DNA from: Mobula hypostoma
Taxonomy: Eukaryota
NCBI RefSeq assembly: GCF_963921235.1
Contig: NC_086108.1
Coordinates: 71,922,001-71,986,000 of the forward strand
Direction: 5' to 3'
Length of the DNA stretch: 64,000 nucleotides
Of the stretch, positions 2,622 through 62,852 are shown piece after piece. Each line of letters starts with the position of its first letter. Position 1 is the stretch's first letter. The notes beneath the pieces were generated by a model. That model saw only the letters and a program-made list of their open reading frames with translations. It was not told where the DNA came from and searched no databases. The position numbers and the translations under genes were made by a program.

Positions 2622-3110
2622 ACATAGAACATAAAACATAGAAATCTACAGCACATTACAGACCCTTCAGCCCACAAGGTTGTGCCAAACATGTAACTAC
2701 TCTATAAACTGCCTAGAATACCCTGCTGCAGAGGCCTCTATTCTTCTAGGCTCCGTGTACCTATCTAAGAATCTCTTCGAAGATCCTATTGTATCCCCCT
2801 CCACCACCGCTGCCGGTAGCCCATTCCATGCCCACCACTCCCTTTGTGAAAAACTTACTCCTGACATCCTCTCTGTACCTACTTACAAGCACCTTAAATC
2901 TATGCCTCCTCATATTGGCCATTTCAGCCCCGGGGAAAGGCCTCTGGCTATCTATGCAATCAATACCTCTCATCATCTTATACACCTCTGTCGGGTTACC
3001 TCTCATTCTCCGTCACTCCAAGGAGAAAAAGCCAAGTTCACTCAACCTATTCTCATAAGGCATGCTCCCCAATCCAGGCAACATCCTTGTTAAATACCCT
3101 CTGCATCTCC
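2622..3110 (-). mobile_element. CR1 LINE 3' end, 5'-truncated
   Basis: ORF 2761..3006 matches the CR1 ORF2 C-terminus (MRG..EVYKMMRGID); short-repeat tail (CATAGAA)n on + strand. Confidence 0.85.
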
Positions 3111-3149
3111 TTATTTCTGGAACAGCTTGGTTAGAGGAACAACTAATTC

Positions 3150-4250
3150 TGGGTGCAGGTCATCAGTACTATCATTTTAAGATATTAGTTTAGTCTCTGT
3201 TATTCCTAGAAATTAAGTGCAATGAATTGAATAGCCAGGATTAGGTTCTATGATTGTGGAGATCTCTAGAGGAAGCTGAGATGAATCATGAATTCTGCAG
3301 TAATGGCTGAATGGGGATGTAAACATTTCAGCTTTCAAACTATTCCTTTGTTTCCTCCTTATATCCACTTCAGAACTAACTTTTCTACTCATTATTTTTA
3401 TCATCAGTAAATTAGCAGCCTTATTTCAATGCCTTCATCTTTCAGTTATATAAATTGTAAAGCATTTGAGGCCCCAGAACTGATGCCTGTGACACGCCAC
3501 TCACTAAATCGTGCCAAAGAGTAAAAGACCCATTGATTCCTGCTCTATTTCCTGCTAGCCAGCCAGTCTTCAGATGATCTTCTATGCATGCCAACTTGTC
3601 ACCTCCTGCACTGTTTTCTTTTATTTTCCACAATTATCTTTGGCATGGCACCTTGTAAATGCTGACATAAGAGACTGCAGATACTGGAATCAAATGCAAC
3701 ATACAATGTGTTCAAAGAACTCAGCAGGTCAGACTGACCTCCTGAGTTCCTCCAGGGCTTTGTGTGTTGCACCTTACAAATGCATTCTGGAACCCCAAGT
3801 GTAATAATCCATCAGAAACCTTTTTCCACAGCATGAAGAACTCCAATAAATTAGTAAAAGATGATTGCTCTTTTGCAAAATCACGTTGCCTTTGCCTGAT
3901 TACCTCAAGTTTTCTAAGTGCCATGTTATAAAATTTTCAACGATTGCTTCTAATCTATTTCAATCCAATGGTATTTGTTTTTGAATCTGAGAAGTTTTGA
4001 AATAATAATAACAATGATTAACTACATCTTTAGACCCTTCTAGCGCAATGCTCTTTGGAACCCAGACTTAGCTCCAACAACTTGTTTTTGTTACTACTAT
4101 CCGAGTAATTTTAATTTTCTTTCCCTTTTATTCCCCTATTTACAAATATTTCTGGAATTTTTTTTATATCATTAATAGTGAAGACTGCTCCAAGGGACCT
4201 GACTAATGCATTTTTATTCTCCTTATTTTCTATAATTGAATAATTAGTGA
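3150..4250 (-). mobile_element. Old, highly decayed CR1 ORF2 remnant
   Basis: ORFs 3442..3633 (GINGSF..W..LVSGVSQASVLGP) and 3721..3924 (SSFTNLLEFF..HLGFQNAF) are RT motifs. Confidence 0.6.
3663..3768. mobile_element. Miniature palindromic PLE-terminus insertion
   Basis: Inverted arms GCAACATACAA..GAACTCAGCAGGTCAG / CTGACCTCCTGAGTTC..TTGTGTGTTGC, flanked by GCACCTTGTAAATGC (3648-3662) and GCACCTTACAAATGC (3769-3783). Confidence 0.6.
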
Positions 4251-4267
4251 TCTACAATTGAAATTGA

Positions 4268-4851
4268 ATTACGAGCAGAGAGGTAATGTTGCAGCTATAT
4301 AGGACCCTGGTCAGACCCCACTTGGAGTACTGTGCTCAGTCTGGTCGCCTCACTACAGGAAGGATGTGGGAGCCATAGAGAGGGTGCAGAGGAGATTTGT
4401 AAGGACGTTGCCTGGATTGGGGAGCATGCCTTATGAAAACAGGTTGAGTGAACTCAGTTTTTTCTCCTTGGAGCGATGGAGGATGAGAGGTGACCTGATA
4501 GAGGTGTATAAGATGATGAGAAGCATTGATCATGTGGATAGTCAGAGGCCTTTCCCCAGGGCTGAAATGGTTGCCACAAGAGGACACAGGTTTCAGGTGC
4601 TGGGGAGTAGGCACAGAGGAGATGTCAGGGGTAAGTTTTTTACGCAGAGAATGGTGAATGCGTGGAATGGGCTGCCGGCAACGGTGATGGGGGCATATAC
4701 AATAGGGTCTTTTAAGAGACTTTTGGATAGTTACATGGAGCTTAGAAAAATAGAGGGCTATGGGTAAGCCTAGTAATTTCTAAGGTAGGGACATGTTCAG
4801 CACAACTTTGTGGGCTGAAGAGCCTGTATTGTGCTGTAGAGTTTCTATGTT
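4268..4851 (+). mobile_element. CR1 LINE 3' end, 5'-truncated
   Basis: ORF 4366..4767 (ERVQRRF..RMRGDLIEVYK..FFTQR..NAWNGLP); tail GGGCTGAAGAGCCTG..TTTCTATGT. Confidence 0.9.
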
Positions 4852-4859
4852 TTTTTTAA

Positions 4860-5190
4860 AGATCATCTTTTTTGTGTCACATGTACATCAAAATATTGAA
4901 ACATTTAGTAAAATGCATCATTTTGGGTCAACGACCAAGCTGTGCAAGATTGTGCTAAGGGCAACTTGACAGGGTCGCCACACTTCCGGCACAAATGTAA
5001 CATGATCACAACTCATTAACCCTAGTCCTAACTACATGTCTTTGGAATATTGGAGGAAACCCACACAATCACAGGGGAGGGAGTGAGAAAGTACAAACCC
5101 CTTACTGTCAGCGATCAGATTAAAACCCCAATCGGTGACTGCTGGCTCGGTAAGGTGGTTTTGCTAACTGCTATGTTCCTGTATCGCTAA
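4860..5190 (-). mobile_element. SINE, probably V-SINE/HE1-like
   Basis: GTCTTTGGA..TGGAGGAAACCCACAC..TCACAGGG core, reverse-complementary to the core at 18895-18955. Confidence 0.5.
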
Positions 5191-5323
5191 TTATTAGTTC
5201 CTCAACACTACTATGTATGGGCCCACTTTGTCTTCTCTTTGCTTTTTAATTATTTACAAAAACTCAATATCTTTTCACATTTCTGGCTGGCTTTATCTTG
5301 TAATAAGATATTGATCTTTTAGT

Positions 5324-6357
5324 AACAAACACAAGAGATTTTGCAAATGCTGGAATTCCAAAGTAGCACATACAAAATGCTGGAGGAACTCAGCAGGCCA
5401 GGCAACATCTATGGAAGGGAATAAACAGTTGACATTTTGGGCTGAGACCTTTTATCAGGACTGGAAAGGAGTGGGGAAGAAGCCAGAATAAGAAGGTGGG
5501 GGTGAGGGGAGAAAGGAGAAGGCGTACAAGCTAGAAGATGGAGCCAGACGGGTGGGGGAGCGAGGGTGAAGTGAGAGGCTGGGAGGTGATAGGTGGGAAA
5601 GATAAAAGGCTGAAATAGAATGAATTTGATCGGAGAGGAGAGTCGACCATGGGAGAAGGGGAAGGAGGAGGGGCACCATGAGGAGGTTTTATAGTTAGGT
5701 GAGGAGAAGAAAAGGGATAAGAGGGGAGCCAGAGTGGGGAATGGAGAAGAAGGAAGGGGGAGGGGAGAATTACAGGAAGTTAGTAAAATTGATGTTCATG
5801 TCATCAGGCTGTAGGTTATCTAGATGGAATATGAGGCATTGCTCTTCCAACCAGAGAGTGGCCTCATCGTGGCAGTTGAAGAATGGACATATTGGTTCGT
5901 AGGTTCCTCTAGTGCCATGATGAAGCCACTTTCGTGAACATCAACTTCTTTAACTTCTGGTAATTTGTTCTTCTCCCTCTTCCCTCTTCGTCCATTCCCC
6001 ACTCTGGGTCCCCTCTTAACTCTGCTTTTCTTGTCACTGGCCTATCACCTCCCCCTGGTGCCCCTCCTCCTTCCCTTTCTCCCATGATCCACCCTCCTCT
6101 CCTATCAGATTCCTTCTTCTTCTCCAGTCTTTACTTTTTCCACCGATCAACTTCCCTGCTTCTCATTCCCCCTCCATCACCTACCTGGCTTCACCTATCA
6201 CCTGGCTTGTACTCCTTCCCCTACCCTCACCTAATTATTCTTCCGTCTTCCTTTCCAGTCCTGATGAAGGATCTCAGCCTGAAACATCGACTGTTTATTC
6301 ATTTCCATTGATGCTGCTGGACCTACTGAATTCCTCCAGCATTGTGTGTGTTACTCT
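5324..6357. mobile_element. Two PLE 3' ends in inverted orientation (~1 kb quasi-palindrome)
   Basis: Left arm 5324-~5890 and right arm ~5900-6357 are reverse complements; left arm minus frame reads LEEQCLIFHLDNLQPDDMNINF (GIY-YIG endonuclease C-terminus). Confidence 0.8.
6256..6293 (+). ncRNA. Minimal type I hammerhead ribozyme motif (PLE-associated), one stem III substitution
   Basis: CAGTC-CTGATGA-AGG(ATCTCAG)CCT-GAAA-CA-TC-GACTG: stem I CAGTC/GACTG, CUGAUGA and GAAA core, UC cleavage site. Confidence 0.65.
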
Positions 6358-6419
6358 TGATCTTTAAGTCATTCTTCTCTGTTTTTAATATTTAGGCCTG
6401 TCATTTATCTTTATACACA

Positions 6420-6804
6420 CAGTTGGAGCTCAAATACCCGGGGTCTTCTCTCTTCACCCTGCGATCCACTCTGACCCCCTTGACTTGCCGCTTGGGACCA
6501 CCCAAGGGTGATGGACCAGAGCGCTTCCAGCACGTCCGTCTTCTCCCGGGTCTCTCCTAAAAAGCCCGCCAAACACACCGGTTCCCAGCCATATGAGACA
6601 GAATATCACCCCCAAAAAAAAGAATAACATGGACACCCATTGGTTCATTCCCTCCTTATCATTAGTGATAACCCAAACAAGCTGCTAGAAAAAGAATCAC
6701 TGTCTCAGCGGTTAACATCACAGAGAAACCATTTTAATTATAACATAACAAAGAAGCCATTTTGATTAACATACGCAGCAACATAAAAGAAGAAACCCCT
6801 TACA
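6420..6804. mobile_element. Partial LTR (probably Gypsy-type)
   Basis: CpG-rich segment ending ...AAACCCCTTACA, embedded in an old CR1 remnant; other terminus missing. Confidence 0.35.
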
Positions 6805-7079
6805 CATTAATATGCTTTTACCTTAAGTTTGATTCCATTGTAAACATTTTAGATAGCCATAGATGTTGCATCCTCCCTTTGGAACTCTGCATATTATGTA
6901 AGATCTTCGAAAATATTTGCCTCTGCATTTTGATTAACCTAATTAGCAGTTCACATTAGCTAATTCTTGTTGTTCTTTAAGTTTAAAACATTAGTCTTTA
7001 CTGTATTTTTACTACCTCAGATTGAATGTAAAATTCAGTCACATTATGGTTGCTGCTATAGTGGGGCCCCTTCGTGAGA

Positions 7080-7984
7080 TAAGACCATAAGACCGCAAGA
7101 TATAGAAACAGAATTCGAACATATGGGCCATTGAGTCTGCTCTGCCATTTCATCATGGCTGATCCATTTCCTCTCTCAGTCCCGATCTCCTGACTTCACT
7201 CCATATCCCTTCATTCCCTGACAAATCAAGAACCTAATCAAACTCTGCCTTAAATACCCCCTATGACTTGGTCTCCACAGCCACCTGTGGTAACAAATTC
7301 CACAGATTCACCACTCTCTGGCTAAAGAAATTCCTCCTCATCTCCATTCTACAAGGATGCCCCTCTATTCTGAGACTGTGTTCTCTGGTCTTAGACACCC
7401 CTACCAGAGGAAACATTCTCTCCACTTCTACTCTTTTGAGGCCTTTCAACATTCAATAAGTTTCAATGAAGTTAGTCACTCATTCTTCAGAATTCCAGTG
7501 AGTACAGGCTAAGAGCCATCAAATGCTTCTCATCTGAAGAGTCTTTTCATCCTGGAATCATTTTTGTGAACCTCCTTTGACCCTCTCCAATGTCAGCACA
7601 TCCTTCCTGAGATAAGGGCCCAAAACTTCTCATAATACTCCAAGTGAGGCCTCACCAGTGCTTTATAAAACTTCAACATTACATCCTTGCTTTTATATAT
7701 TTAGTCCTCTTGAAATGCGTGCTAACATTGCATTTGCCTTCCTCACCACCCAGTCAATCTGCAAATTAATCTTTAGGGAACTGCATGAGGACTCCATAGT
7801 CTCTTTGCATCTCAGGTTTTTGGATTTTCTCTCCTTTTGGAAAATCGTCTGTTCTTTCATTTCTTCTACCAATGTGCATGACCATACACTTCCTGATACT
7901 GTATTTGATTTGCCATTCTTTGCCCATTCTCCTAATCTGTCTAAGTCATTCTTTAGCCTTTCTAATTACTCAAGACTACCTGCC
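7080..7984 (-). mobile_element. CR1 LINE 3' part
   Basis: Tail (ATAAGACC)n on +; ORF 7261..7452 matches the CR1 ORF2 C-terminus. Confidence 0.85.
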
Positions 7985-20150: not shown

Positions 20151-21203
20151 TCAGTACTCAGTTGAACCACCTCTACCAGCTAATACAGTCCGCAATCTTT
20201 TTGGATAAAAGATTTGCACAACGTGATGGAGCAAGATTTGCCCACTCCTTCTTGCAGAATTACTCAAGTTGTGCCAAGGTCATCAGAGAATGACAGTGGA
20301 CAGCAGTCTTGAGGTCTTGCCAGAGACGTTTGATCCGGTTAAGGTCAGGACTCTAACTCCCAGTCCCACTCAAAGACATCAATTCTCTTTATTTGAAGCC
20401 ACTTCATGGTTGCTTTGGGTCATCCTGCTGAAAGACAAAATTCCTCTCCAGTTTAATCTTTCTGGCTGAGATCCAGGATCTCTCTGTATTTAGCAGCATT
20501 CATCTTCCCATCAATCCTGACCAGATTTCCAGTCCCTGCTACTGAACAGTATCCCCATAGCATGATGCTGGCTCCACCGTACTTTACAGTAGTGATGGTG
20601 TTACCTGGCTGATGCACAGTATTGGATTACACCACACATACTGTTTGGTGATACCAAAAAGATCCACTTTAGTCTCATCCGACCACAAGACCTTCTTCCA
20701 CATCTTTACAGTATCTTCTAAGAAACACTTTGCAACGCCTTTAGGGGCAAGAATACAGGGCTTCTTCCTTGTTATTCTTCCATAAATACCTGCTTTGTGC
20801 AAGGCTTTAGGGACTATGGAGCAATGAACTTCATCTCCAGTTGCAGCTACTGACTTCTGCAGCTCACACAGAGTGATTGTTGGCGTTACGGTAGCCTGGC
20901 TTACAAGTGTCATTCTTCTCCAGCACTATGTTTAGAGCAGGAGTTTCCAACCTGGGCTCCATGGACCCCTTGGCTAATGATAGGGGTCCATGGCATAAAA
21001 ATGATGGGAAACTCTGGTTTTGAGAGACAGCCTGGCCTAGGTAGTGTGGCTGTGATTTCATATTTTTTCCACTTTTTCAAGATGGACAGCACTGAGCTTT
21101 GAGATATGTTCAGTGCCTTTGAGACGGCCTTGTACCTTTCCCCAGATTTATGCTGCTTTATTATCATTCCCCTGGCTTGCTTTGAATGCTCTTTTGTTTT
21201 CAT
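20151..21203 (-). pseudogene. Tc1 DDE transposase pseudogene
   Basis: MKTKEHSKQ..HKSGERYKAVSKAL; WKKVLWSDETKVDLFG; FQQD; C-terminal GGSTEY*; frameshifts and a MITE insertion. Confidence 0.85.
20938..21016. mobile_element. hAT-type MITE (79 bp)
   Basis: CAGGAGTTTCCAACC...GATGGGAAACTCTG termini; 8-bp TSD GTTTAGAG/GTTTTGAG. Confidence 0.75.
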
Positions 21204-21569
21204 TTTGGTTTGATCTGTTGAAAATCTACCATACTGTTGGACTTTACAGAGAGAGGGGTTATTTATCCTTATGAATTCATGAATTATGAACAGATTATCC
21301 TCCAGTTCTCTACATCAACAGATTTGGTGAATTGGTAATGCAATATTGGCCCCTGAAGAAAGTTAGCATAGTAATTACAATGGGGAAGAATACTTTTACA
21401 GCCCCACAATTTTGATTTTTACCTTTTAGGGAATTGCTGACTGGTTTTGGAATTTTTCTTTTGACTTGACATGATGCACATTAGCTCAAAAATCCTACCT
21501 CAATGTATTTTAAATTTAGAAAATGTGAAAATAATTGTGGGACTGAATACTTTTTCAAGGCACTATAGA

Positions 21570-46535: not shown

Positions 46536-47518
46536 ATCTGCATCTTTTTCTCCTGGAAAATGTATAATCTGGCTAAAAATATCTAACATTTCAAAATTAT
46601 GTATTAATATTGCGCAGAACTTTTAGATTAGATTATGAGAACACCCAGTCCTCTTTTATTGTCATTTAGAAATGCATAGATGCATTAAGAAATGATACAA
46701 CCTTTTTGAGGACTTTAGCTTTAAATCCTGTATGGAAGGCAAAGTTAAGATAAACTTTAAGGTTATTTTCACTTTCATTTTGACAACGTGAAGTGCTGAG
46801 TAATTGAAGTAATCCTAACAGGTTCAACACTATTCCAATGCCATCATATAAGTTCTGAGTGGATTTCTGCACGTTTGCAGTTCTTCCTGCTCTTGTCTCA
46901 ATGCATATTATGTAGAACCCTGTTTGACTCTAAGCTAAGACTGCCAGTGAACTTTACACCTGATCAAAATGACATGCAAAACTAGCAAATCTAAAATTAG
47001 CTTTAAGCAATTGAGTTTGCAATAAAGTTGGTGAATTTGTGATGTTCTATTGTGAAGGTTAACTGGAAAGGAACAGATGAGCAGGGCACAATATATTATT
47101 GTATAAGATTATTTTTATTTGACATCAATATTGGCAAATAGCCCTATCAAATCAACTACCAAATATAAATTGCTTGAGAAACTCAGTGAGTCAAGCAGCA
47201 TCTGTGAGCACAGGGATCATTGATGTTCCTTGCCGGGACATCCATCAGGACTGAGAGTGTAGAAGGAGGGACACTCAACATAAAGAGGTGAAGGGGAGGG
47301 GTGAGGTAACATCTAGCGGAATATAGGTGGACCCAGGTGAGAAGAGGATAATTGACAGATATAGCCAGATGTGGAAAGGGAAGGGGTAGAATTGGAAGTC
47401 AGTGGCTGATGGATGATAGGTAGAGAGAAGGAGAGGGAGAAGTAAAAGGGGGCAGATAGATCATGATAAGGGGAGGGAAGGATGGAGATGGAGACAGAGC
47501 TGGAAGGTGATAAGTGGT

Positions 47519-49369
47519 TAATTACAAGCGAAGTGGAGATTCCAGACTTGACTGGAATCAATGAGGGATGCTCGACAGCTATGGCAAGGTTTGAATGCAA
47601 TAACCTCCTACAAAATTAAATCTAGTGACATAGGGGACAGCAGAGCTTTGCTTCCAGGAGATCTCAATGCCTTCTATGTTTGCTTTGACCACCCGATCAG
47701 GGAGGAACCATCACGTATCCCCATGTCTCCCGATGATCCTTTGGTCTCAATATCTGAAAATGACATGCGGACTGTCTTCAAGAAAACGAATCCTAGGAAA
47801 ATATCCAGTCTGGACGGCGAACTTGGCCAAGAGCCAAAAACCTGTCTGACCATCTGGCTGGTGTGTTCACAGATATCTTCAACCTCTCACTGTAGCAGTG
47901 TGTGGTGCCCACCTGCTTCAAGCAGGCTTCAATCAAAACGGTGCCCAAGAAGAGTGTGGTAACCTGCGCAATGACTTTTGCCCAGTGGCACTTGCATCCA
48001 CAGTGGTGTTTTAAGAGGCTGGTGTTGAAACATATCGGCTTCTGGCTGAGTGGCGACTTGGGTCCATTCCAATTTGCCTACTGAAGAAACAGGTCTACAA
48101 TGGATGCCATCTCATTGGCTCTTCACACAACCCTGGAACAGCTGGATGGCAAAGATGTTTACATCGGGATGCACTTTATTGATTACAACTCAGCATTTAA
48201 TATCATCATCCCCTCAAAACCAATCAGTAGAGTCCTAGACCTGGGCCTCAATAGCCCCTTGTGCAACTGGATCCTGGATTTCCTCACTTGTAGACCCCAG
48301 GCAGTTCAGATTGGGGGAAAAAAAATCTCTTCCACTATCTCCACCAGCAAAGGAGCACCACAGGGAAGTGTGCTTAGCCCCCTGCTCTACTCACTTTACA
48401 CCTATGACTGTGTGGCTAAGTACAACTCCAACACCACATATAAGTTTGCTGATGACACCGCGGTTGTGGGCTGTGTCGGGATGGTGATGAATCAGCATAC
48501 AGGAGGGAGACTTAAAATTTGGCTGAGTGATGTAACAACAACAACCTCTTACTCAATGTCAACAAGACCAAGGAACTGTTTGTAGACTTCAGGGGAGGGA
48601 AACCAGAGTTCCATGAGCCAGTACTCATTGGAGAATCAGATGTGAGATTGTCAGTAGCTTTAAATTTCTGGGTGTCACAATCTCAGAAGACCTGTCCTGG
48701 ACCCATCATATAAATGTAATTATGAAGAAAGCACAACAGCACCTCTACTTTCTCTGGAGTCTGTGGAGATTCAGCATGTCATCAAAAACCTTGGCAAACT
48801 TCTATAGATGTGTGGTGGAAAGTGTGCTGACTGGCTGCATTACAGCCTGGTAATGGGACACCAATGCTTTTGAGCGGAAAATCCTACAAAAGGTAGTGGA
48901 TTCATGGGTAAAGCCTTCCCAGCCACTGAGCACATCTACATGAAACCTTGCCATAGAGAAGCAGCATCCATCATCAAAGATCCTCAGTACCCAGGGTCTT
49001 TTCTCACTGCTGCCATCAGGTAAAAGATACAAGTGCCTCAGGGCTCACACCACCAGGTTCAAGAACAGTTACTACCCCTCAACCGTCAGACTCTCGAGCA
49101 AAAAGGGATAACAGCATGCATTCTATTTCTGGTGATCCCACAACAGATGGTCTCACTTTAACAGCTCTTTATCTTGGTATTTCATGCTCTTGTTATTTAT
49201 TGCTTTTTATTTATATATACACAGTTTGTTGCTTATTGATCCTTTTTACAATTACTGTTCTATGATTTGCTAAGTATGCCTGCCGGAAAAAGAATCTCAG
49301 GGTTGTATGTAGTGACAAGTATGTACTCTGATAATGCATTTTACTCTGAACTTTGAATTTTGAACTTTG
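47519..49369 (+). mobile_element. Rex1/Babar-type LINE, RT to 3' tail, inserted in PLE-derived sequence
   Basis: [36 protein letters not shown]; tail (TTTGAAC)n; AAGTGGT at 47512-47518 and 49370-49376. Confidence 0.88.
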
Positions 49370-50289: not shown

Positions 50290-51195
50290 GGATTGTAGTT
50301 AATTGGGGCACATCAGGTCCAGTACATTTTGACTTAATTAAGCAGCTGCCCCAAATAGCTGAAATTTCATTGAAATATTAAAAACATAAACTAGTATTTC
50401 ACTGAGTAACCAATTATATATTTAAATGTAATACAGAACAAATTAAAACACTACCAGTACTACTACACTACTATAAAACTGTGTATTTGTTCCTAATAGT
50501 TATCAATGGAGGAATTCATTCGGTATATACAGTCTTTTGATTGACTGTATATGAACAAAATCAGCGCAAACACCCAGTGCAGATAATGGCCTGCCTTCAT
50601 ACAATACTTTCAACGATTACATCCTCCAAATCTTCATTTTCTTTGTAATATGTAAGATGATTGTTGATACCTTCAAATTCTTCATAGTCCCTAACTTGTT
50701 GACGTAGTGAAACTTCATTTTCACTCCCTGCTATTTCTGGCATCTCTAAGCCTGAATGCTTGGAACTGCAGTGAGCAAAACAGTTCTGAATTGTCCTTCT
50801 GCTTCCTTCTCGCCAACTATCAGTGACAAAATTTACTGCCTTTTGAACACAAATACAAGCAAATGATTCAATTTTAAGAACTGTTGATTCTAAACATGGT
50901 CTAATGATCACACAAGTGCAAGCCACTGACGCTAGTTAGAAACTGCTTGGCAGCAGATGCCTGTCCCAATTAAGCAGCATGGTGTCCCAAATAAACGAAG
51001 AGAATGCTAAAACAAACAAGAGAAAATCTGCAGATGCTGGTAATCCAAGCAACACAACCAAAATGCTGGAAGAAATCAGCAGGCCAGGCAGCATCTATGG
51101 AAAAAAAAGTACAGTTGATGTTTTGGGTCAGGAGCCTTCGGCAGGACTGATGCGAGATTCTCTTTAAGAGTTGTCCTAAATAAGTGGATGCCACT
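50290..51195 (-). mobile_element. pogo/Tigger-like transposon derivative, with a PLE terminus nested at 51010-51150
   Basis: KAVNFVTDSWREGSRRTIQNCFAHC resembles the DDE_1 C-terminal motif; repeated subterminal CCCAATTAA/CCCAAATAA motifs. Confidence 0.6.
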
Positions 51196-51664: not shown

Positions 51665-52130
51665 TCATAGAATCAGATTTTCTATCATTGGCAGAGGTTA
51701 CGAAATTTGTTGTTTTACAGCAGTAGTACAAGAAATATACAATATAAGTAGTGCAAAAAGAGAACAAGAGAAGAGAAAAACAAAAGTAAGGTGGTGCACA
51801 TGGGTTCATTGTGTATTCAGAAATCTGATCGCAGAGGGGAAGAAGTTGTTAATGAAATGTTGAATGTGTGTCTTCAGCCTCCTCTTCCTCTTTGATACTA
51901 GCAATGAAAAGGTGATGAGGGTCCTTAATTACGAATGCCACCTTCTTGAGGCATCAGCTTTTGCTGGGGAGGCTAGTGCTCATTGTGGAGCTGGTGGAGT
52001 TTACAACTTCCTTCAGCTTTTTCTGATCCTGTGCAGTGGCCCCTCCCTACCAGGCCGTAATGGAACCATTAGAATGCTCACCTCAGTACACCTATAGAAG
52101 TCTTCATGTGTCTTTGTTGACGTAAAAGGT
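51665..52130 (-). mobile_element. Rex1/L2-type LINE 3' fragment
   Basis: Tail AGAATCAGA; homologous to 26332-26595 and the revcomp of 48780-49090. Confidence 0.65.
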
Positions 52131-52569
52131 CTCCTCATACTCCGTACTTCTTTGCCTGGCACATATTGTGTGATATGATGTATTACATTTCAATAAGTAT
52201 ACTAACTTTATCTGTTTCAAATGTCTGTGTTATGCCTTAATGTCTTCATCATAAAATATATCCAGTTTGAGTATCTTGATTCAGTCTATTGTGTCAATTG
52301 GAATGGTGACCATTAATTAGTTCTGATGTGGGGTTTCGATCCAAAATGTTGACTGTTCCCATCCTCTCAAAGAAAGGAATTCTTCCATCTGGTTGTTTGT
52401 TGCACCATTAATTATAGAAATACTTCTAAAAAATAGTCTGAATTAACTCAAATCTTTCCATACTTGTCACTGGTGTATTCCAAAGTCGCAAAGATGGCCA
52501 ATAAGAAACAGAAAAACCATAAAAGTACAAAACAGCTTTCTTTTTCAAATTGCAGGAAGTGGCAAAGAG

Positions 52570-52950
52570 TATTATCAGTATATCCTCTAACAGTTAGAGT
52601 TCTTTATATTATTCTGGAAGCTTCTTGGGGATTGCAATATTTGAATGGGGGCTGTCTGATTGGTTAACTCTTATCAACAAATTTGAATGGAATTAATTTA
52701 TTTTCATTTACTTAGTAATACAGCATGGATTAAGCCCTTCTGTTCCTTCAAACCATACTGCCCCTGACAAATCTGATTAATCCTAACCTAATCACTGTCT
52801 TTTATCTATGGTATAAGGAGAGCAGAGCACATTAGTTCATCATCTTTTCTTTGTTCTTGTTTCTTGCTACTCTCTTCTCTTTGTTCTCTTAGCACTTGAT
52901 AAAATGATCGTGAAGCAGCAGGTTTTGTGCTTCATTCTTGAGTTCCAACA
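52570..52950 (+). repeat. ERV 5' LTR (5' end missing; ~100-bp SINE-tail insertion at 52694-52795)
   Basis: Aligns to the 3' LTR (TATTATTCTGGAAGCTTCTTGG..CTGATTGGTTAAC..ATAAAATGATCGTGAA); ends CCAACA followed by ATTTGG. Confidence 0.8.
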
Positions 52951-53654
52951 ATTTGGCAATTTGCAATGTTTTAAGAGCTTGGGAGAATCTGAGACGAAGA
53001 GGAAATTTTCAGCACCAAAACTTAAAAGGAGGTGAGGACTCTTCCTCTATAAATTCAAAATGGTTTGAGTAAGTGGACTAGTTCTGGCTTCAACACACCA
53101 CCTAGTGGAAGCTTGAGTGAGGAACCTCCTATACGTTGCTATTCTGCAAAGATAAGATCTGTAAAACACAGACCAGCTCTGAAATTAATATCATGCTGAA
53201 ATTGAGTTTGTACAGGTTGGTGGCGTATGGGGAAATTTTCCAGCTGTAATCTAGTACTTAAAAAAAAAAACCTAGATTGTGATTTAATGAGGACACAATC
53301 GTACAAAATTTCATTTGCAAATTAGTAATAATATTTTGATTGCAATCTAGTGGTGAAATTTTAACTGCATTCTAATAATGTTAGATCGCAGGCCAAGTGA
53401 TAAAAAAGTACAAACAAATTAAGTGGTACATGAGATTGAATTAAGACAATGGCCAAAGTCGTGAAACATAACTGCAGAATCTCCACTTATGTGTGAATAG
53501 ATGACTGAGCTCTTGCCTGAATAAAACATTTTAGTTTGCTAAGAGTAATGAAAAAAAAGCTGAAGAAAAATAACATCAATTTAAGTTTATTAAGAAGGCA
53601 AAGGGAAAGGAAATTATCTGGAAGATGTGAGTTAAAGATACAAACATTGGGATG

Positions 53655-54745
53655 CATATTTCAGATGCTCTTTATCGACTACATTTCAGCAATCAATACC
53701 ATCATCCCCTTCAAACTAATCAATAAGCTCCAAGACCTTGGCCTCAATATCTCTTTGTGCAAAAGGATTCTTGAGTTCCTCACTTGCAGAGCCCAGTCAG
53801 TTCGGGTTGTCAACAACATCACCTCCATTATCTCCATCAGCACAGATACACTGCAAGGTTGTGTGCTTAGCCTCTGCTCTACTTGCTTTATAATTATGAC
53901 AGTGCGGCTAAGCACAGTTCCTACGCCATATTCAAGTTTGCTGATGACACCACTGTCATAGGCCAAATCAAAGGTGGTGATCAATCAGCATATAGGTAGG
54001 AGATTGAAAATCTGACTGAGTGTTGCCATAACAACAACCTTCTACTCAATGCTAGCAAGACCAAGGAGCTGACTATTGACTTCAGGAGGAGAAAACCAGA
54101 GGACCATGAGCCAGTCCTCACTGGAGGATCGGAGGCGAAGAGGGTCAGCAGCCTTAAACTCCTTGGTATTATCATTTCGGAGGACCTGTCCTGGGCCCAG
54201 CAAGCAAGTGCGATTAGTTTAGATAAGATTATGAGGACACTCAGTCCTCGTTTATTGTCATTTAGAAATGCATATATGCATTAAGAAATGATACAATGTT
54301 CCTCCAGAGTGATATCACAAAAAAACAAGACAAACCAAAGACGAGAGTGTCTTGGACCTTCAGGTGGTCCATAGCCAGTGGTGATTGATAAGTTCGTGGC
54401 CTAAGGTAGAAGGCGATGAGTTATACCGCTGTCGTTACATGCATGTGCAGGTCAACTCTTTGAGTGAAAATGCAAGAAGTTTGAAGTTAATAACTCATCT
54501 CCTTCTACCTTAGGCTATTAACTTATCAATCACCCCTGCTGTGGACCACTTCTGGAGGTCCAAGACGCCGACTTTTACAAAGAAGGGATCTGTATGCTCC
54601 ACGACCGTTGGACTAAGTGTGTAAATGTAGGAAAAATAAATGTGCTAGGTTTTCTAAAATTGACTCCTTCTACCTTAGGTCACGAACTTATCAATCACCC
54701 CTTGTATATATACTTCAATAATAAATTTACTTTGAACTTTGAACA
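53655..54745 (+). mobile_element. Rex1-type LINE fragment inside the ERV, itself interrupted
   Basis: [26 protein letters not shown]; tail AAATTTACTTTGAACTTTGAAC at 54722-54744. Confidence 0.75.
54349..54706 (+). mobile_element. mariner-derived MITE with three TIR copies
   Basis: GGTGATTGATAAGTTCGTGGCCTAAGGTAGAAGG and two reverse-complement copies; DFYKEGICMLHDRWTKCVNVG matches the mariner transposase C-terminus; ends CCCCTTG-TA. Confidence 0.75.
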
Positions 54746-55298
54746 CGTGGTCAGTTTGATTAAATGTATGAGCAAGTGAAAAAGTTAATGAAGCAAGTAA
54801 AGCAATTAACTAAACAATTGGGAAAGAAAAGTGAAACGTGATAAACTATGCACATGCTATGATAGAGACAGTAAAACAGTATAAACAGCAAATTTCTGCA
54901 TTAACTGAACGAATGAAAAAACAATGTGGGAAGTGCAATGGAATCAAAGTGCATTGCATTGAGCTTCAAGACCAACTGAAGCAATATGTTAATGGAGAGT
55001 AGGACCGCACAAAGGTCCCACTGTCTGTCACATGGCTATGAGACAGCACCTGAGAGACTCACCAGCCACTGATTCGAATATCATACAATACATGGCTGAT
55101 GTCCTGATTGCATCTGAAGTTGCAGACCAGCTTGAACATGATGTATTTTATTTTCTCCAACGATCACAAAGCAGCTCTAGACATGGCACAATTGTAACTA
55201 GAGGAAGTAATTTACTTGGGACAGAAAATTTCCCAAGGTAAGCATGAAATCACTGAGGATCATGCAAAAGTCTGCAAAGCCTCTTGCAACAACTTGAA

Positions 55299-55300
<2 letters not shown>

Positions 55301-55340
<40 letters not shown>
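55301..55340. repeat. (GT)20 microsatellite within pol
   Basis: Direct observation. Confidence 0.95.
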
Positions 55341-55342
<2 letters not shown>

Positions 55343-56477
55343 CTACAACTGAGTATGGGTCAATTCATCTGCTGAAATTGCCCAACCACTTAACAATCTG
55401 CTGAAGGGACGTAAGCACTCAGATGACCCTATGACTCTTAATGAAGAGCAAATGAAAACGTTTCAAACTTTAAAGATGACATTGTGACCTTAGGAATCTC
55501 TGATACAGGTAAATCTTTTATACCTTATGTCTATGAAAAACATATGATGGCAGTCTTAACTCAAGAACATGGAGACCAACAGCTTCCTATTGGTTATTAC
55601 TCTGCCAAAGATCTGAATCTGTGCCGATAGCTTCTCAATGATTAAGGGAGGCATTTGAATACCTGGATGGACTGTTGCTTCTGAAACTGAAATGCTGGCA
55701 TCAGAAAGCATGGCTCCTGGTACCTCTGAAAAACAAGCAGAACTGAAAGATCTGATTTGAAACCTGTGAGACGGCAGAAGAAGGAAGGTCAGCTAATATC
55801 TACAGTGATTCTCAATATGCTTTTAAAGTTGTTTGAAAACCTAAGGAGACAAAGGAGATTTCTTACAGCTAGAAGAATCCTAATCAAGAATGGCCAACTA
55901 GTGCAAGAACTCATGAATGTTGTGCAATTGCTGTCAGAAGTTGCTGTAATAAAGTGTAAAAGTCACTCCAAAATGACAATTGAAAGCTGTAGAAATGCAC
56001 TTGTGGATGAAATTGTGAAAAAGGCAGCACAGGAAGGGGTAAAAGAAATAAAAGAAGTTAAAGAAGTTTTAAGAAAGGTCAAAGAATTAAAAGAATACTG
56101 AGAATTTAAGCATTGAACCCAACAACTGAAATTATGAAAATGAAGTTAAAATCTATATCATAGATGAAGATACAAGATAGTCAAGAGATGCTCGCTCGAT
56201 GCTCCAGCCAGGGAAAGTTCTGGATGGAGAATGGTGTGAGGTTTAACAGTGATGGAGCATGGAGATATGACTATAATCATAGACTAGAAGCTCCAACTGC
56301 ATTGCTTCCATATCTGACACAGCAGATAGACTCCCTAGGACATATAATGGAGTGGAAAAGATGATCAACAGATTTTCCCCATGGTGGTAGAATCCAAAGT
56401 TCAAGTAACAAGCTTGACAAATGTTTGAAAGATGCACGTCATACCAGAAAACTAATCCTGGAGCAGTGGAAAAGCTA

Positions 56478-56532
56478 CATTGTGGGCTGAAGGGCCTGTA
56501 CTGTGCTGTACTATTCTATGTTCTATGTTCTA
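56478..56532 (+). mobile_element. 55-bp CR1 3' tail inserted in integrase
   Basis: Near-identical to 13385-13428; removal rejoins ..GAVEKL|PQWRSSAPPGP in frame. Confidence 0.85.
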
Positions 56533-57458
56533 CCACAATGGAGATCTTCTGCTCCACCTGGTCCATCTTTACACTTACAAGTGGACTATGTTACTTTGCC
56601 AAAGTGTCAAGGATACTCAGATGTACTGGTAATAGTAGACAAGATTTCAAGATGTATAGAAGCTATTCCACCAAGGAAAGCCAATCCCACACACAGAAAA
56701 AAAACTCCCATCAAGGATTATATTCCTAGATGGGGATTGCCATGTCACATCAACTCTGATCAAGGTTAATATTTCACTGGGAATGTTTTCAGGAATTATG
56801 TTGACTGATGAACATTTAATAGTCTCTTCATTGTCCACATCACCCAGAGTCAGTAGCACAAATTGAATGAATGAATGGAACCACTAAGTATCTTGAAGAA
56901 GGGGTACCCATGCTCTATGGCTCTTCCTATGGTCTTGCGTAGCGTCGCAGCAATCCCAAACAAGCAAACTAAGTCCATTCGAAGTAGTAACATGATGTCC
57001 TATGTCACTGCGGAGAGCTCTTGATCTCTGAGAGGCTGATATACGTATTATGGCAGATCATTTAGATAACGATGGTGTGAAATTAACTCAAACTGTCCAG
57101 TCTGCTTCTCAACAGGTTTCTACTACTTGGAGTGAGCCATCAGAAGGAGAACCCTCCCTGATGCATGGTGAGTGGGTCTTGATTAAGAAATCACATAAGA
57201 ATCATTGAGATCTTAAAAAGGAATGCCCTTCTCAAGTGCTGTTAATTATTAACTCAGTGGAATCATAGCAGCCACTGCAAGCAGGGTAAAGTGACATGTG
57301 ACAAGGATAAGCTCTGTGATTAATGTATTAGTAACCTCTGACTCAGTTCCTACACTGCTGGGCTACAGAGAGGAAATCATTAATCAGCCAGAAGACTTCA
57401 AGCAAGTCAACAACTACTGGAATGGAGGTTTATTCTCATATTATTAGTTATTATTATA

Positions 57459-58021
57459 TGTAACGCTCTGTAAGTTTTCACTTCTAATGTAACGGTTTCT
57501 CTGTAGCAGCAGCGTTTGGGTTACATCTAGAGATAACAGGGGCTTTGGAATGTACGGTGTCCAATGAGAGGCAGGCTGTTTCTTTCTTGTGTGTCTGAGA
57601 GAAGGGAATCACGGGCTTTTGTTCGGCGGAAAATGGAGAGAGAAGATACCAGAACGGAGAGGCCGTAGACTGCAGGATGGAGTGGACTTGGAGTGCAGCC
57701 GGGAGTCGATGATGCCCGGGGGGAAATCAATGGAGAACTAATGGACGGGAAAACAGTAAGCTCCAACGTGCACATTAAACTGTTACATAAAAATGGGCCC
57801 CTTTTTCTTTTTGTTTACTTTACTAACCCTATAGTCAAATTAAGGATTATAAAGCTCAATTGTTTGGTAACATATTGTGTACTGTTTGTTATGTTGTGGT
57901 ACTGATTTGTAACAGAGGAACACATCATGCAGCATCCATCCAAACAAGATTTCTCAAGCTTGGTCAGGCCAGAGGCTGTCTCCCCCTAGATTAACGAAAC
58001 TGGCCGAACCTGAGAGTTACA
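57459..58021. mobile_element. Solo LTR (563 bp, probably Gypsy-type) inserted in the env leader
   Basis: TGTAACGCTC...GAGAGTTACA (9/10 inverted match); 4-bp TSD TATA/CATA. Confidence 0.8.
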
Positions 58022-58050
58022 CATATTATTCAATTTTCCCTACTCACATT

Positions 58051-58542
58051 ATGCCAATTGAGATGATGCATAATGTATACTCGTGAGTATCACGTGAATT
58101 TGCTGATGCTGTTAATGCATCTTTCTGTAGGTTATGTCAATATACCATACACTTAGAAATAGTTACCATGGGTAAGATAGTTCATCAAAATCGTATGGCT
58201 TTAGATCTTCTCTTAGCAGTTAAGGGGAGAATATCTACAATTTTAGGCAAGGAGTGTTGTACTTGCATACCCAAAGACCTATCTGATTTGGCAGATCATA
58301 TTCGTAAAGCTGCAGCTAAAATACATCAATCAAATATATGAGATTTAGTTGATTAAATTCATTTCCGTGTAGGAAACTGGGGTTACCCAATATTACAAGT
58401 CAAGGTATTTGTCTTGATATGTTTTATCATAATTTACATATTTTATTATTGTATAAGGGTGATTGTTAATAGAGCAGTTCAAACTCCTGTAAGTGTACCT
58501 ACTTTCAAAGACAATCTACCTATCAATGACATAATCCTATGA
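58051..58542 (+). pseudogene. env: Retroviral env remnant (SU N-terminus joined in frame to TM)
   Basis: VNASFCRLCQ then HQNRMALDLLLAVKGRISTILGKECCTCIP and hydrophobic VFVLICFIIIYIFYYCI; three in-frame stops. Confidence 0.85.
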
Positions 58543-58674
58543 ATACCCTTTTGTTTGTCTATAACTTATGTAATTTTTGGATTATTTTATATTTACATAA
58601 TTAGCACAAGTTTTCTGCCTCTGAATTTTCAGATATTATGATTATAAATGTATGATTTAGAATCAAATGGGGAA

Positions 58675-61600
58675 TGTTGGATTAGACAGTATAATTGTTA
58701 TTTTCTTTGCAGTTTAACTTTCTTATGACTGCTTGTATGTACATGCAATTGTTCAGTGTGTTGCTAGTGGTTACAGTTTGTATTATTCTGGAAGCTTCTT
58801 GGATATTGTGTTATTTGAAAAGGAGCTATCTGATTGGTTAACACATCTACACATTTGAATGGAATGTCTGTTATTAATGGTATAGGAAGAGCAGACCACA
58901 TTGGCTCACCATGTTAGGAGGGGTTAGGAGGGGGAAGGGGAAGAGTCAGGTAATAGAGAGTACCCCGGTGGCTGTGCCCCTTGACAATAGGTACTCCTGT
59001 TTGAGTACTGTTGGGGGGGGCAGCTTACCCAGGGGAAGCGACAGTGGCCGTGCCTCCGGCACAGAGTTTGGCCCTGTAGCTCAGAAGGGTAGGGAAAAGA
59101 AGAAGAGGGCAGTTGTAATAGGGGACTCGATAGTAAGGGGGTCAGATAGGCGATCCTGTGAACACAGTCCAGAGACCCGGATGGTAGCTTGCCTCCCTGG
59201 TGCCAGGGTCCGGGATATTTCTGATCATGTCCAAGATATCCTGAAGTGGGAGGGTGAGGAGCCAGGGGTCGTGGTACATATAGGTACCAATGACATAGGT
59301 AGGAAAAGGGAAGAGGTCCTGAAAGGAGAATATAGGGAGTTAGGAAGGGAGTTGAGAAAAAGGGCTGCAAAGGTAGCAATCTCGGGATTACTGCCTGTGC
59401 CACGCGACAGTGAGAGTAGGAATGCAATGAGGTGGAGGATAAATGCGTGGCTGAGGGACTGGAGTAGGGGGCAGGGATTCAAGTTTTTGGATCATTGGGA
59501 CCTCTTTTGGCGCAGGTGTGACCTATACAAAAAGGATTGGTTACACTTGAATCCTAGGGGGGAACAATATTCTGGTGGGGAGATTTGCGAGGGCTACTGA
59601 GGTGACCTTAAACTAGAATGGTTGGGGGGTGGGAATCAAATTAAAGAGACTAGGAGAGAAGAGGTTAGTTCACAACAGGGGGATGGGAACCAGTGCAGAC
59701 AGACAGAGGGGTGTAAAATGAGGGTAGAAGCAAAACGTAGAAAGGTGAAAAGTAAAAGTGGCAGGCCGGCAAATCCAGGGCAAAAATCAAAAAGGGCCAC
59801 TTTTCAACATAATTGTATAAGGGCTAAGAGTGTTGTAAAAGCAAGCCTGAAGGCTTTGTGTGTCAATGCAAGGAGCATTCGCAACAAGGTATATGAATTA
59901 AAAGTGCAGATTGTTATTAATGAATATGATATAGTTGGGATCACAGAGACATGGCTCCAGGGTGACCAAGGATGGGAGCTCAACATTCAGGGATATTCAA
60001 TATTCAGGAGGGATAGACATGAAAGAAAAGGAGGTGGGGTAGCATTGCTGGTTAGAGAAGAGATTTACACAATAGAAAGGAAGGACATTAGCCGGGAGGA
60101 TGTGGAATCAATATGGGTAGAGCTGCATAACACTAAGGGGCAGAAAATGCTGGTGGGAGTTGTGTACAGGCCACCTAACAGTAGTAGTGAGGTTGGGTAT
60201 GGTATTAAACAGGAAATTAGAAATGTGTGCAATAAAGGAACAGCAGTTATAATGGGTGACTTCAATCTACATATAGATTGGGTGAACCAAATTGGTAAAG
60301 GTGCTGAGGAAGAGGATTTCTTGGAATGTATGCGGGATGGTTTTTTGAACCAACATGTCGAGGAACCAACTAGAGAGCAGGCTATTCTAGACTGGGTATT
60401 GAGCAATGAAGAAGGGTTAATTAGCCATCTTGTCGTGACAGGCCCCTTGGGTAAGAGTGACCATAATATGGTGGAATTCTTCATTAAAGTGGAGAGTGAC
60501 ATAGTTAATTCAGAAACAAAGGTTCTGAACTTAAAGAAGGGTAACTTTGAAGGTATGAGACGTGAATTAGCTAAGATAGACTGGCAAATGACACTTAAAG
60601 GGTTGACGGTGGATATGCAATGGCAAGCATTTAAGGATTCCATGGATGAACTACAACAATTGTTCATCCCAGTTTGGCAAAAGAATAAATCAAGGAAAGT
60701 AGTGCACCCGTGGCTGACAAGAGAAATTAGGGATAGTATCAATTCCAAAGAAGAAGCATACAAATTAGCCAGAAAAAGTGGCTCAGCTGAGGACTGGGAG
60801 AAATTCAGAGTTCAGCAGAGGAGGACAAGGGGCTTAATTAGGAAGGGGAGAAAAGATTATGAGAGAAAATTGGCAGGGAACATAAAAATGGACTGTAAAA
60901 GCTTTTATAGATATGTAAAAAGGAAAAGACTGGTAAAGACAAATGTAGGTCCCCTGCAGACAGAAACAGGTGAATTGATTATGGGGAGCAAGGACATGGC
61001 AGACCAATTGAATAACTACTTTGGTTCTGTCTTCACTAAGGAGGACATAAATAATCTTCCAGAAATAGTAGGGGACTGAGGGTCCAGTGAGATGGAGGAA
61101 CTGAGGGAAATACATGTTAGTAGGGAAGTGGTGTTAGGTAAATTGAAGGGATTAAAGGCAGATAAATCCCCAGGTCTGCATCCCAGAGTGCTTAAGGAAG
61201 TAGCCCAAGAAATAGTGGAAGCATTAGTGATAATTTTTCAAAACTCTTTAGATTCTGGACTAGTTCCTGAGGATTGGAGGGTGGCTAATGTAACCCCACT
61301 TTTTAAAAAAGGAGGGAGAGAGAAACCGGGGAATTATAGACTGGTAAGCCTGACATCGGTGGTGGGGAAAATGCTAGAGTCAGTTATCAAAGATGTGATA
61401 ACAGCACATTTGGAAAGCGGTGAAATCATCGGACAAAGTCAGCATGGATTTGTGAAAGGAAAACCATGTCTGACGAATCTCATAGAATTTTTTGAGGGTG
61501 TAAAATAGTAGAGTGGATAGGGGAGAACCAGTGGATGTGGTATATTTGGATTTTCAAAAGGCTTTTGACAAGGTCCCACACAGGAGATTAGTGTGCAAAC

Positions 61601-62852
61601 TTAAAGCACACGGTATTGGGGGTAAGGTATTGATGTGGATAGAGAATTGGTTGGCAGACAGGAAGCAAAGAGTGGGAATAAACGGGACCTTTTCAGAATG
61701 GCAGGCAGTGACTAGTGGGGTACCGCAAGGCTCAGTGCTGGGACCCCAGTTGTTTACAATATATATTAATAACTTAGATGAAGGAATTAAATGCAGCATC
61801 TCCAAGTTTGCGGATGACACGAAGCTGGGCGGCAGTGTTAGCTGTGAGGAGGATGCTAAGAGGATGCAGGGTGACTTGGATAGATTAGGTGAGTGGGCAA
61901 ATTCACTTTGGTGGCAAAAACAGGAAAACAGATTATTATCTGAATGGTGGCCGATTAGGAAAAGGGGAGGTGCAACGAGACCTGGGTGTCATTATACACC
62001 AGTCATTGAAAGTGGGCATACAGGTACAGCAGGCGGTGAAAAAGGCGAATGGTATGCTGGCATTCATAGCAAGAGGATTCGAGTACAGGAGCAGGGAGGT
62101 ACTACTGCAGTTGTACAAGGCCTTGGTGAGACCACACCTGGAGTATTGTGTGCAGTTTTGGTTCCCTAATCTGAGGAAGGGCATCCTTGCCATAGAGGGA
62201 GTACAAAGAAGGTTCACCAGATTGATTCCTGGGATGGCAGGACTTTCATATGATGAAAGACTGGATCGACTAGGCTTATACTCGTTGGAATTTAGAAAAT
62301 TGAGGGGGGATCTGATTGAAACGTATAAAATCCTAAAGGGATTGGACAGGCTAGATGCAGGAAGATTGTTCCCGATGTTGGGGAAGTCCAGAACGAGGGG
62401 TCACAGTTAAGAATAAAGGGAAAGCCTTTTAGGATCAAGATTAGGAAAAACTTCTTCACACAGAGAGTGGTGAATCTGTGGAATTCTCTGCCACAGGAAA
62501 CAGTTGAGGCCAGTTTATTGGATATATTTAAGAGGGAGTTGGATGTGGCCCTTGTGGCTAAAGGAATCAGGGGGGTATGGAGGGAAGGCTGGTACAGGGT
62601 TCTGAGTTGAATGATCAGCCATGATCATACTGAATGGTGGTGCAGGCATGAAGGGCTGAATGGCCTACTGCTGCACCTATTTTCTATGTTTCTATGTTTT
62701 CTTCACCTTTCTTTCTTCTTATTTCTTGCTACTCTCCTTTCTCCATTCCTTTGTTCTCTTAGTGCTCAATAAAATGATCGTGAAATAGCAAGTTTTGTGC
62801 CTTGTTCTTGATTCCTGAAAGAACCTTAGATTAAAAATACCATAATCCAACA
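58675..62852 (+). repeat. ERV 3' LTR split by a CR1 (halves 58675-58915 and 62699-62852)
   Basis: Perfect 10-bp inverted termini TGTTGGATTA/TAATCCAACA; PPT AAATGGGGAA upstream; AATAAA at 62768-62773. Confidence 0.85.
58916..62698 (+). mobile_element. Young near-full-length CR1 (ORF1 esterase + disrupted ORF2)
   Basis: ORFs 58911..59600 (VVIGDS, HIGTND), 59622..61079 (GITETWL, GDFN, SDH), 61092..62410 (RT); tail (TTTCTATG)n; ATGTT at both junctions. Confidence 0.95.

Follow-up and report, generated by a model that had tools for sequence, protein, structure and literature searches.

Does the interval at positions 52570..62852 of a 64,000-nucleotide (nt) stretch of Mobula hypostoma DNA (contig NC_086108.1, positions 71,922,001 to 71,986,000 of the forward strand; the whole stretch is referred to as the window) hold the remains of one endogenous retrovirus (ERV), and to which retroviral lineage did that virus belong? 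A first-pass annotation, made from the sequence alone, had described a hidden provirus here with two long terminal repeats (LTRs), pol and env. Our analysis favors, with a probability of about 0.8, a single provirus, old and no longer functional, of a class I-like retrovirus that carried env and belonged to a deep lineage otherwise sampled in teleosts. Its parts lie on one strand in the order LTR, leader, pol, env, polypurine tract (PPT) and LTR.

Ends and reading frames of the element

Three homologous blocks on the same strand pair positions 52575-52946 with 58753-58915 plus 62699-62815. The identity of about 85% over about 87 nt that had been aligned by hand was reproduced as 83.5% over 91 columns (52603-52693 against 58777-58865, E = 2e-22), and two further blocks of 80% were found (52796-52846 against 58865-58915 and 52836-52946 against 62699-62815). 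Local alignment scores of 125 and 136 compare with shuffle maxima of 47 and 51 (300 shuffles each). Overall, 220 of 262 aligned bases are identical (84%; 29 transitions and 13 transversions), and the Kimura two-parameter (K2P) divergence over these bases is 0.184 with a standard error of 0.030. Once a nested CR1 element of 3,783 nt (previously put at about 3.8 kb) is taken out, the 3′ LTR is 395 nt long, and its ends, TGTTGGATTA (58675-58684) and TAATCCAACA (62843-62852), are perfect inverted repeats of each other over 10 nt, in line with the perfect ends described before. The reported PPT was located at 58665-58674. The PPT/LTR junction, AAATGGGGAA followed by TGTTGGATT, resembles that of L046, a contig of the related fish clade, which reads AAAAGGGAGGAA followed by TGTTAGATT.

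The statement that both LTRs are present needs a qualification: there are two LTRs on the same strand, and the 5′ copy has lost its start and aligns only from 52575. For the ~78 nt that open the 3′ LTR, no counterpart was found in it (score 19, shuffle mean 20). Relative to the 3′ LTR, it also lacks 33 nt shortly before its last bases, and it carries about 100 extra nt at 52694-52795 that are SINE-like (short interspersed element) by eye. The LTRs are 5,724 nt apart, of which 1,659 nt belong to six nested inserts. The parts of the element are as follows.

52575..52950, plus strand: 5′ LTR remnant, delimited by LTR-LTR alignment; end ...CCAACA with CA kept, start lost
52951..53649, plus strand: leader, possibly 5′ gag; TGG at 52954-52956 at the expected start of the primer-binding site (PBS); gag homology not significant
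54703..54999, plus strand: coiled-coil-like stretch, followed by a deletion of the rest of gag, protease and the N-terminal half of reverse transcriptase (RT)
55002..55484, plus strand: C-terminal half of RT and thumb; YMAD at the YxDD position
55490..55609, plus strand: first part of the tether (connection); ~120 residues of the relatives (P0151 residues 445-563) absent after it
55605..56047, plus strand: second, retroviral-type RNase H, in three frames
56221..57281, plus strand: integrase (IN); zinc-binding region degraded, D-D-E positions present, C-terminal domain aligning with relatives that bear MLVIN_C
57400..58542, plus strand: gamma-type env remnant with a signal-peptide-like start, 5′ end approximate; most of the surface subunit (SU), the furin site and the fusion peptide deleted
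58665..58674, plus strand: PPT AAATGGGGAA, 9 of 10 purines, directly before the 3′ LTR
58675..58915, plus strand: 3′ LTR, first part, start TGTTGGATTA
62699..62852, plus strand: 3′ LTR, second part, end TAATCCAACA; AATAAA at 62768-62773

The pol remnant is colinear with the fish proteins P0151 and P0164. Similarity to P0151 starts only at about residue 233 and runs through the thumb to 444; the protease and the N-terminal half of RT have therefore been lost. It resumes at 564 and continues through RNase H and integrase. The pol with tether and RNase H described before thus stands in an altered form: it also includes the C-terminal half of RT, a second RNase H and integrase, and its tether is limited to the first part. 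Pol carries 14 stops over 611 codons and changes frame about ten times; the four acidic positions of RNase H and the D-D-E of integrase are recognizable by eye. In the native frames, Pfam returned RVT_1 (E = 0.011), RNase_H (0.083), rve (1.5e-6) and TLV_coat (0.0023). MLVIN_C exceeds its cut-off in the relatives, and the corresponding region of the window can be aligned to them. The nearest solved RT to P0151 is of the MLV type (E = 3e-114), compared with 1e-56 for foamy virus and 7e-51 for Ty3.

The env remnant retains a CxxC motif (CRLC at 58126), an immunosuppressive domain (ISD, QNRMALDLLLA at 58186) and a membrane anchor (58390-58467). The best PDB match of its transmembrane (TM) part is syncytin-1 (E = 7e-5), and the L046 TM aligns to the window above all 500 of 500 shuffles. 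These features and the sub-threshold TLV_coat match uphold the earlier gamma-type assignment for what is left of the gene; SU is mostly gone, and the CX6CC motif is without its first Cys (CC at 58255-58260). CxxC and ISD are separated by 16 codons in the window and by ~235 residues in L046. The env N-terminus had no significant match to L046, and a search for env homologs scored none of 18 candidates. The gap of ~120 nt between env and the PPT leaves no room for accessory genes after env.

Three large deletions (the rest of gag with protease and the RT N-terminal half, ~120 tether residues, and most of env SU), the six nested inserts and the missing 5′ LTR start extend the first-pass annotation. 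The coiled-coil-like stretch at 54703..54999 is probably a remnant of the gag N-terminus, as weak sequence likeness suggests. No gag match was given by Pfam in the native frames of the window, and the best ESM Atlas score, 0.88 to unnamed viral clusters, gave no support. The site following the 5′ LTR differs from the corresponding site in L046. A link to zebrafish Bik, raised by the coiled coil, was dropped, as Bik is a lokiretrovirus (PMC12067270).

One locus in three organisms

Part of the stretch is represented in 13 runs from five studies, and the comparison covers four of these runs; organisms D and E, with a share of 0.05-0.06, are outside it. Organism A, possibly the source of the window itself, does not count as an independent sample. 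Orthologous copies of the locus were found. In organism B, contigs bridge the left flank, 5′ LTR and leader (52026-53462), the gag/RT junction, the junction of env with a nested solo LTR, and the 3′ LTR with the right flank. In organism C, they bridge the left flank and 5′ LTR, the 5′ LTR and leader, and the gag/RT junction. Divergence is 1.9% for organism B and 5.3% for organism C (computed for each run over 7 of 8 listed pieces, leaving out the one from the CR1 body). The same insertion is present in the three organisms A, B and C. The LTR divergence is approximately 3.5-fold that between A and C, and the insertion therefore long predates the A-C split, which bears out the old provirus of the first-pass annotation.

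The K2P value corresponds to 42, 92, 184 or 418 Myr at 2.2e-9, 1e-9, 5e-10 or 2.2e-10 substitutions per site and year, and the true rate decides among them. The literature yielded no neutral rate for the host; the slowest of the four is the shark rate assumed by Han 2015 (PMC4422223). The stop load of pol implies 0.19 substitutions per site (0.11-0.32), a value probably inflated by frame edges. Because this coding decay is at least half the LTR divergence (0.09), one old insertion suffices for the gap between the LTRs. Sequencing depth, which is not copy number, hints at tens of related pol and LTR copies. A contig of organism B at ~4-6x single-copy depth matches RT, tether and RNase H in a patchy manner (window 55450-56245), and is possibly a younger related pol family. 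None of the listed runs with part of the stretch is an RNA dataset.

The ancestral virus entered cells by means of its Env, whose SU and TM were joined through CxxC and CX6CC. RT and RNase H copied its RNA, priming from a tRNA and the PPT, and integrase inserted the provirus with two identical LTRs, here of ~395 nt each. Fixation in the germ line would have preceded the split of organisms A, B and C; neutral decay, the three large internal losses, the loss of the 5′ LTR start and the gain of six nested inserts and the CR1 would have followed. Every reading frame of the element is lost. Because RT is without its catalytic core and env without its fusion machinery, the provirus is, judged by its coding capacity, inert now. 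No sign of a host function was seen for it.

The order of these events may have been different, in that the copy could have been RT-deleted already at integration, as a non-autonomous form moved in trans by a helper. This is compatible with a single provirus, and we regard it as possible, if somewhat doubtful. In L046, an open frame of 1,049 residues (2690-5839) runs from a gag N-terminus straight into the RT thumb, without a match to capsid, protease or the RT core (RVT_1), and is accompanied by an intact gamma-type env frame of 427 residues (6393-7676). Several other proteins of the fish clade are without RVT_1, and the gag/RT junction is common to A, B and C. However, the breakpoints differ (near residue 233 of P0151 in the window, near residue 351 in L046), the contig that spans the junction in organism A has single-copy depth, and the RNase H and integrase pieces have decayed as much as the rest.

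Several observations weigh against a single class I provirus. Every Pfam match in the ERV parts of the window is under the curated cut-off, and Pfam gave no match for tether or MLVIN_C on the window itself (MLVIN_C in three window frames). No tRNA is assignable to the PBS position (TGG at 52954), and no tRNA gene lies within the window. Gag is not significant: the best coiled-coil match, in one frame out of six tried, was equalled by 3 out of 300 shuffles, there was no match to L046 gag, and a hidden Markov model (HMM) of four relatives gave E = 6. No target-site duplication (TSD) was found in a search hampered by the lost 5′ LTR start; AGTG after the 3′ LTR has one copy in the 300 nt upstream (52558), which is chance level. 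Finally, the leader is near single-copy depth while pol and the LTRs are higher, a weak hint.

The lack of a TSD, a PBS or a proven gag, the absent 5′ LTR start, the LTR divergence of 0.18 and the leader depth would all suit two insertions of one family, one giving the 5′ LTR and leader on the left and the other pol, env and 3′ LTR on the right: either a solo LTR next to a 5′-truncated provirus, or a recombinant with its joint at the gag/RT deletion. We consider this improbable. The two parts lie on the same strand in the expected order, and for a family at tens to ~100x single-copy depth (a rough figure), a chance landing within 2 kb is unlikely. The coding decay matches the LTR gap, and the coiled-coil-like stretch lies where the gag of the relatives has one, a weak point. 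Moreover, in each of A, B and C, contigs cover the run from left flank through LTR to leader as well as the gag/RT junction. An independent insertion of the 5′ LTR is accordingly unlikely, and retains some probability because no TSD, PBS or gag has been shown.

The nested inserts are as follows, the first six lying between the LTRs.

53650..54216, plus strand: LINE (long interspersed nuclear element) RT fragment, 76% to 48168-48708; ends approximate
54218..54296, plus strand: 79-nt repeat, 94% to 46622-46700
54349..54702, no strand assigned: miniature inverted-repeat transposable element (MITE) with inverted repeats, presumably mariner-like
55301-55340, no strand assigned: (GT)20, interrupting the C-terminal half of RT
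56477-56532, no strand assigned: 56-nt CR1 3′ tail, inside integrase
57459..58021, no strand assigned: 563-nt solo LTR of another high-copy family, TGTAAC...GTTACA with flanks TATA/CATA, in the env signal region
58916..62698, plus strand: 5′-truncated CR1 LINE of 3,783 nt with esterase ORF1, endonuclease and RT, splitting the 3′ LTR

The solo LTR has a depth of ~2,000x single-copy, and its left junction is common to organism B. The CR1 is fairly intact, with a GDSL/SGNH esterase ORF1 (E = 1e-15) and a degraded duplication of ~10 nt at its flanks. No joint bypassing either of them was present among the 15 joints listed (there are 3,252 further joints). The window as a whole is vertebrate DNA rich in repeats, CR1 copies among them; positions 1-51500 contain numerous CR1 and further LINE fragments, and a Tc1-like piece (20910-21314) and a pogo/Tigger-like piece (50597-50935) were noted there by eye. 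In that part there is no second retroviral pol, and no host gene was recognized among the 32 open reading frames (ORFs) of at least 120 residues. The two Rfam matches are both at chance level.

Placement of pol

Of eight candidate proteins, seven matched in a search with the integrase core; six of these are from piranha (Serrasalmus, P0001-P0006), at 60%. Two further searches, one by profile and one with P0151, yielded a fish Pol set from Alosa, Coilia, Astyanax and Danio, plus clusters with Cyprinus and Gadus proteins, and this set scores highest on the window. Members of the teleost ERV clade are Alosa P0164, Coilia P0166, Astyanax P0173, Danio XP_073791153 (P0320), P0001-P0006, P0169 (a 90% cluster with a Cyprinus protein), P0165 (a cluster with a Gadus protein) and L046. 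The best identity of the window to this clade is 51% over 550 columns; in RT and IN, identity is 40-57% to the fish ERVs compared with 20-26% to Gypsy-type references. Scans of viral contigs with P0004, A3 and P0216 gave no matches.

Trees were calculated by IQ-TREE with LG+G4 (no mixture model) on 38 and 39 rows drawn from ~400 proteins and 50 loci, over 718 columns. The window row consists of single-frame pieces with breaks coded as unknown. The anchors were WEHV1 (P0050, named), MLV (by PDB match), foamy virus (by Pfam Gag_spuma), L009, in which a cyclin gene was found and which we take to be WDSV-like, and a 10,688-nt genome that is presumably SnRV-like. The latter is the one SnRV-like reference; CmiERV, ZFERV, SSSV and named lokiretroviruses are outside the tree, and the host is named for 5 of the 8 fish-clade rows.

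In the concatenated tree, the window falls within a 9-row fish clade (100/100), where its neighbors are P0169, Coilia, Alosa and P0151 (98/96 and 99/97). The fish clade is sister to the remaining sampled class I rows, together forming a 27-row clade with WEHV1, the WDSV-like row and MLV at 100/98, with the SnRV-like row outside. Among the single-domain trees, RT plus tether (99) and IN (100) put the window in the fish clade, and RNase H groups it with the same fish ERVs in a group (95) that includes WEHV/WDSV. The MLV/REV/bat/baboon clade (100/100) excludes the window, which is hence not a Gammaretrovirus. The approximately unbiased (AU) test rejects grouping of the window with a skate ERV (p = 0.001), and does not reject the clade with epsilon (p = 0.35) or the fish rows without the window (p = 0.068 and 0.20). 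By these trees the element is class I-like and probably not Epsilonretrovirus proper. The gamma/epsilon-like lineage of the first-pass annotation was correct in that the element groups with gamma plus epsilon; among the sampled sequences it is closest to teleost ERVs rather than to the skate ERV.

A point that also counts against the class I placement is that the AU test does not reject the clade with the SnRV-like row and P0216 (p = 0.13). A SnRV-like retrovirus (class III / clade Huo) with a gamma-type env, a combination known from some fish ERVs, would further fit the branching of the fish clade below all sampled gamma and epsilon rows and the lack of a Gag_p30 match in the relative P0320, and class III Pol with gamma-type Env has been described (Chen et al., bioRxiv 10.1101/2021.11.23.469661). 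We nevertheless find it a rather remote prospect: the maximum likelihood tree leaves the SnRV-like row outside (100/98), RNase H alone joins WEHV/WDSV at 95, the relatives have MLVIN_C above cut-off, and the identity of the window to L048 is 42/173, 30/122 and 54/267 (~20-25%). A Ty3/Gypsy retrotransposon beside an unrelated env-like fragment, the grouping that the first-pass annotation had set against class I, is refuted by the AU test (p = 1.6e-5), the identity comparison in RT and IN, and the second RNase H, which occurs in the window and 46 of 46 retroviral-type references but in 0 of 10 Gypsy-type ones, together with an env TM with ISD placed between IN and PPT, even though tether-like RNase H motifs and integrase exist in Gypsy too and dual RNase H in some plant Tat elements (PMC4408406, PMC9040795).

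The fish clade contains further unusual forms. P0170 resembles the L046 fusion, and P0181 and P0190-P0198 are also without RVT_1; RT-less derivatives may be common in the clade. In P0188 and P0346 (a cluster of 22), RNase H and integrase of the clade are joined to a long N-terminal coiled coil that replaces gag/RT and matches PF09730, which we take to be BicD; the coiled coil looks like captured host cargo-adaptor sequence. P0174 represents a cluster of 3,937 members that lies close in the tree to P0320, the gag-pol of Danio, and is a young family of the clade that has been heavily amplified.

Comparison with known retroviruses

The path from the window to the nearest teleost-type Pol is 0.85 (inflated by decay). 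Because this equals the paths within the teleost clade (0.77-0.91), a transfer between teleosts and elasmobranchs, as a teleost-to-ray host jump, is suggested by the tree; against it, a teleost-only clade is left unrejected by the AU values given above. This reading depends on the host being a ray, which the CR1 load would fit. We tentatively propose, as a scenario we would not yet favor, that an undescribed deep class I lineage, sister to gamma plus epsilon, crossed between teleosts and the ancestors of a ray many tens of Myr ago, that the present locus would be a datable fossil of that crossing, and that the lineage may habitually spread as RT-less, env-keeping derivatives. With its two LTRs and its fixation in three organisms, the locus can be used to set a lower bound on the age of a fish ERV clade that is poorly named. 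If the jump is true, the locus would be among the oldest two-LTR ERV loci in cartilaginous fish (0.18 compared with 0.02-0.03 for CmiERVs).

The kind of element is ordinary, as class I ERVs with gamma-type env are already known from cartilaginous fish and host switches of fish retroviruses have been published. Cartilaginous-fish ERVs are spread over the retroviral tree with frequent host switches (Xu et al., PMC6001957), and epsilon-related class I ERVs with gamma-type Env were described from 6 cartilaginous fish, with orthologous groups in Chiloscyllium (bioRxiv 10.1101/2021.11.23.469661). The Pol-LE.1/Pol-LE.2 ERVs of the latter study resemble the Mobula element in that they combine a class I Pol with a gamma-type Env (ISD, CX6CC/CXnC and TM) and have no accessory genes, a likeness by description only, as their sequences are outside our tree. 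Most zebrafish class I ERVs have been called "ancestor type" to gamma and epsilon (PMC8672886), and may be the same clade as the relatives of the window. We found no description matching the fish clade in a literature search with subscription journals mostly outside its scope, and the Chen supplements may list the lineage. Likewise, no paper on ERVs of Mobula was found, mainly in the open literature and with no repeat library compared.

The skate ERV Pol (Leucoraja/Amblyraja, P0106 cluster) is a class I Pol in a batoid too, but of a different lineage by the AU test above. Lokiretroviruses carry an F-type (paramyxo-like) Env, unlike the gamma-type Env of the window. Epsilonretroviruses (WEHV1 and the WDSV-like L009) share a fish class I Pol and group with the window in RNase H alone, whereas they stand apart in the best trees (path length 2.07), and their Env has no TLV_coat match; the cyclin gene of L009 contrasts with the ~120 nt between the gamma-type env and the PPT here. 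A large non-gamma-type Env and accessory genes are reported as Epsilonretrovirus traits (bioRxiv 10.1101/2021.11.23.469661). Lineages II/III of CmiERV in the elephant shark are likewise env-bearing epsilon-like proviruses in a cartilaginous fish, but the LTR divergence of two complete copies is 0.033 (lineage I) and 0.024 (lineage II), compared with 0.18 here (Han 2015, PMC4422223). The teleost ERV clade is the most similar system in Pol layout, in its 100/100 grouping, and in the PPT/LTR start and TLV_coat gamma-type env seen in L046; its members keep long open frames, while the Mobula copy is dead and deleted.

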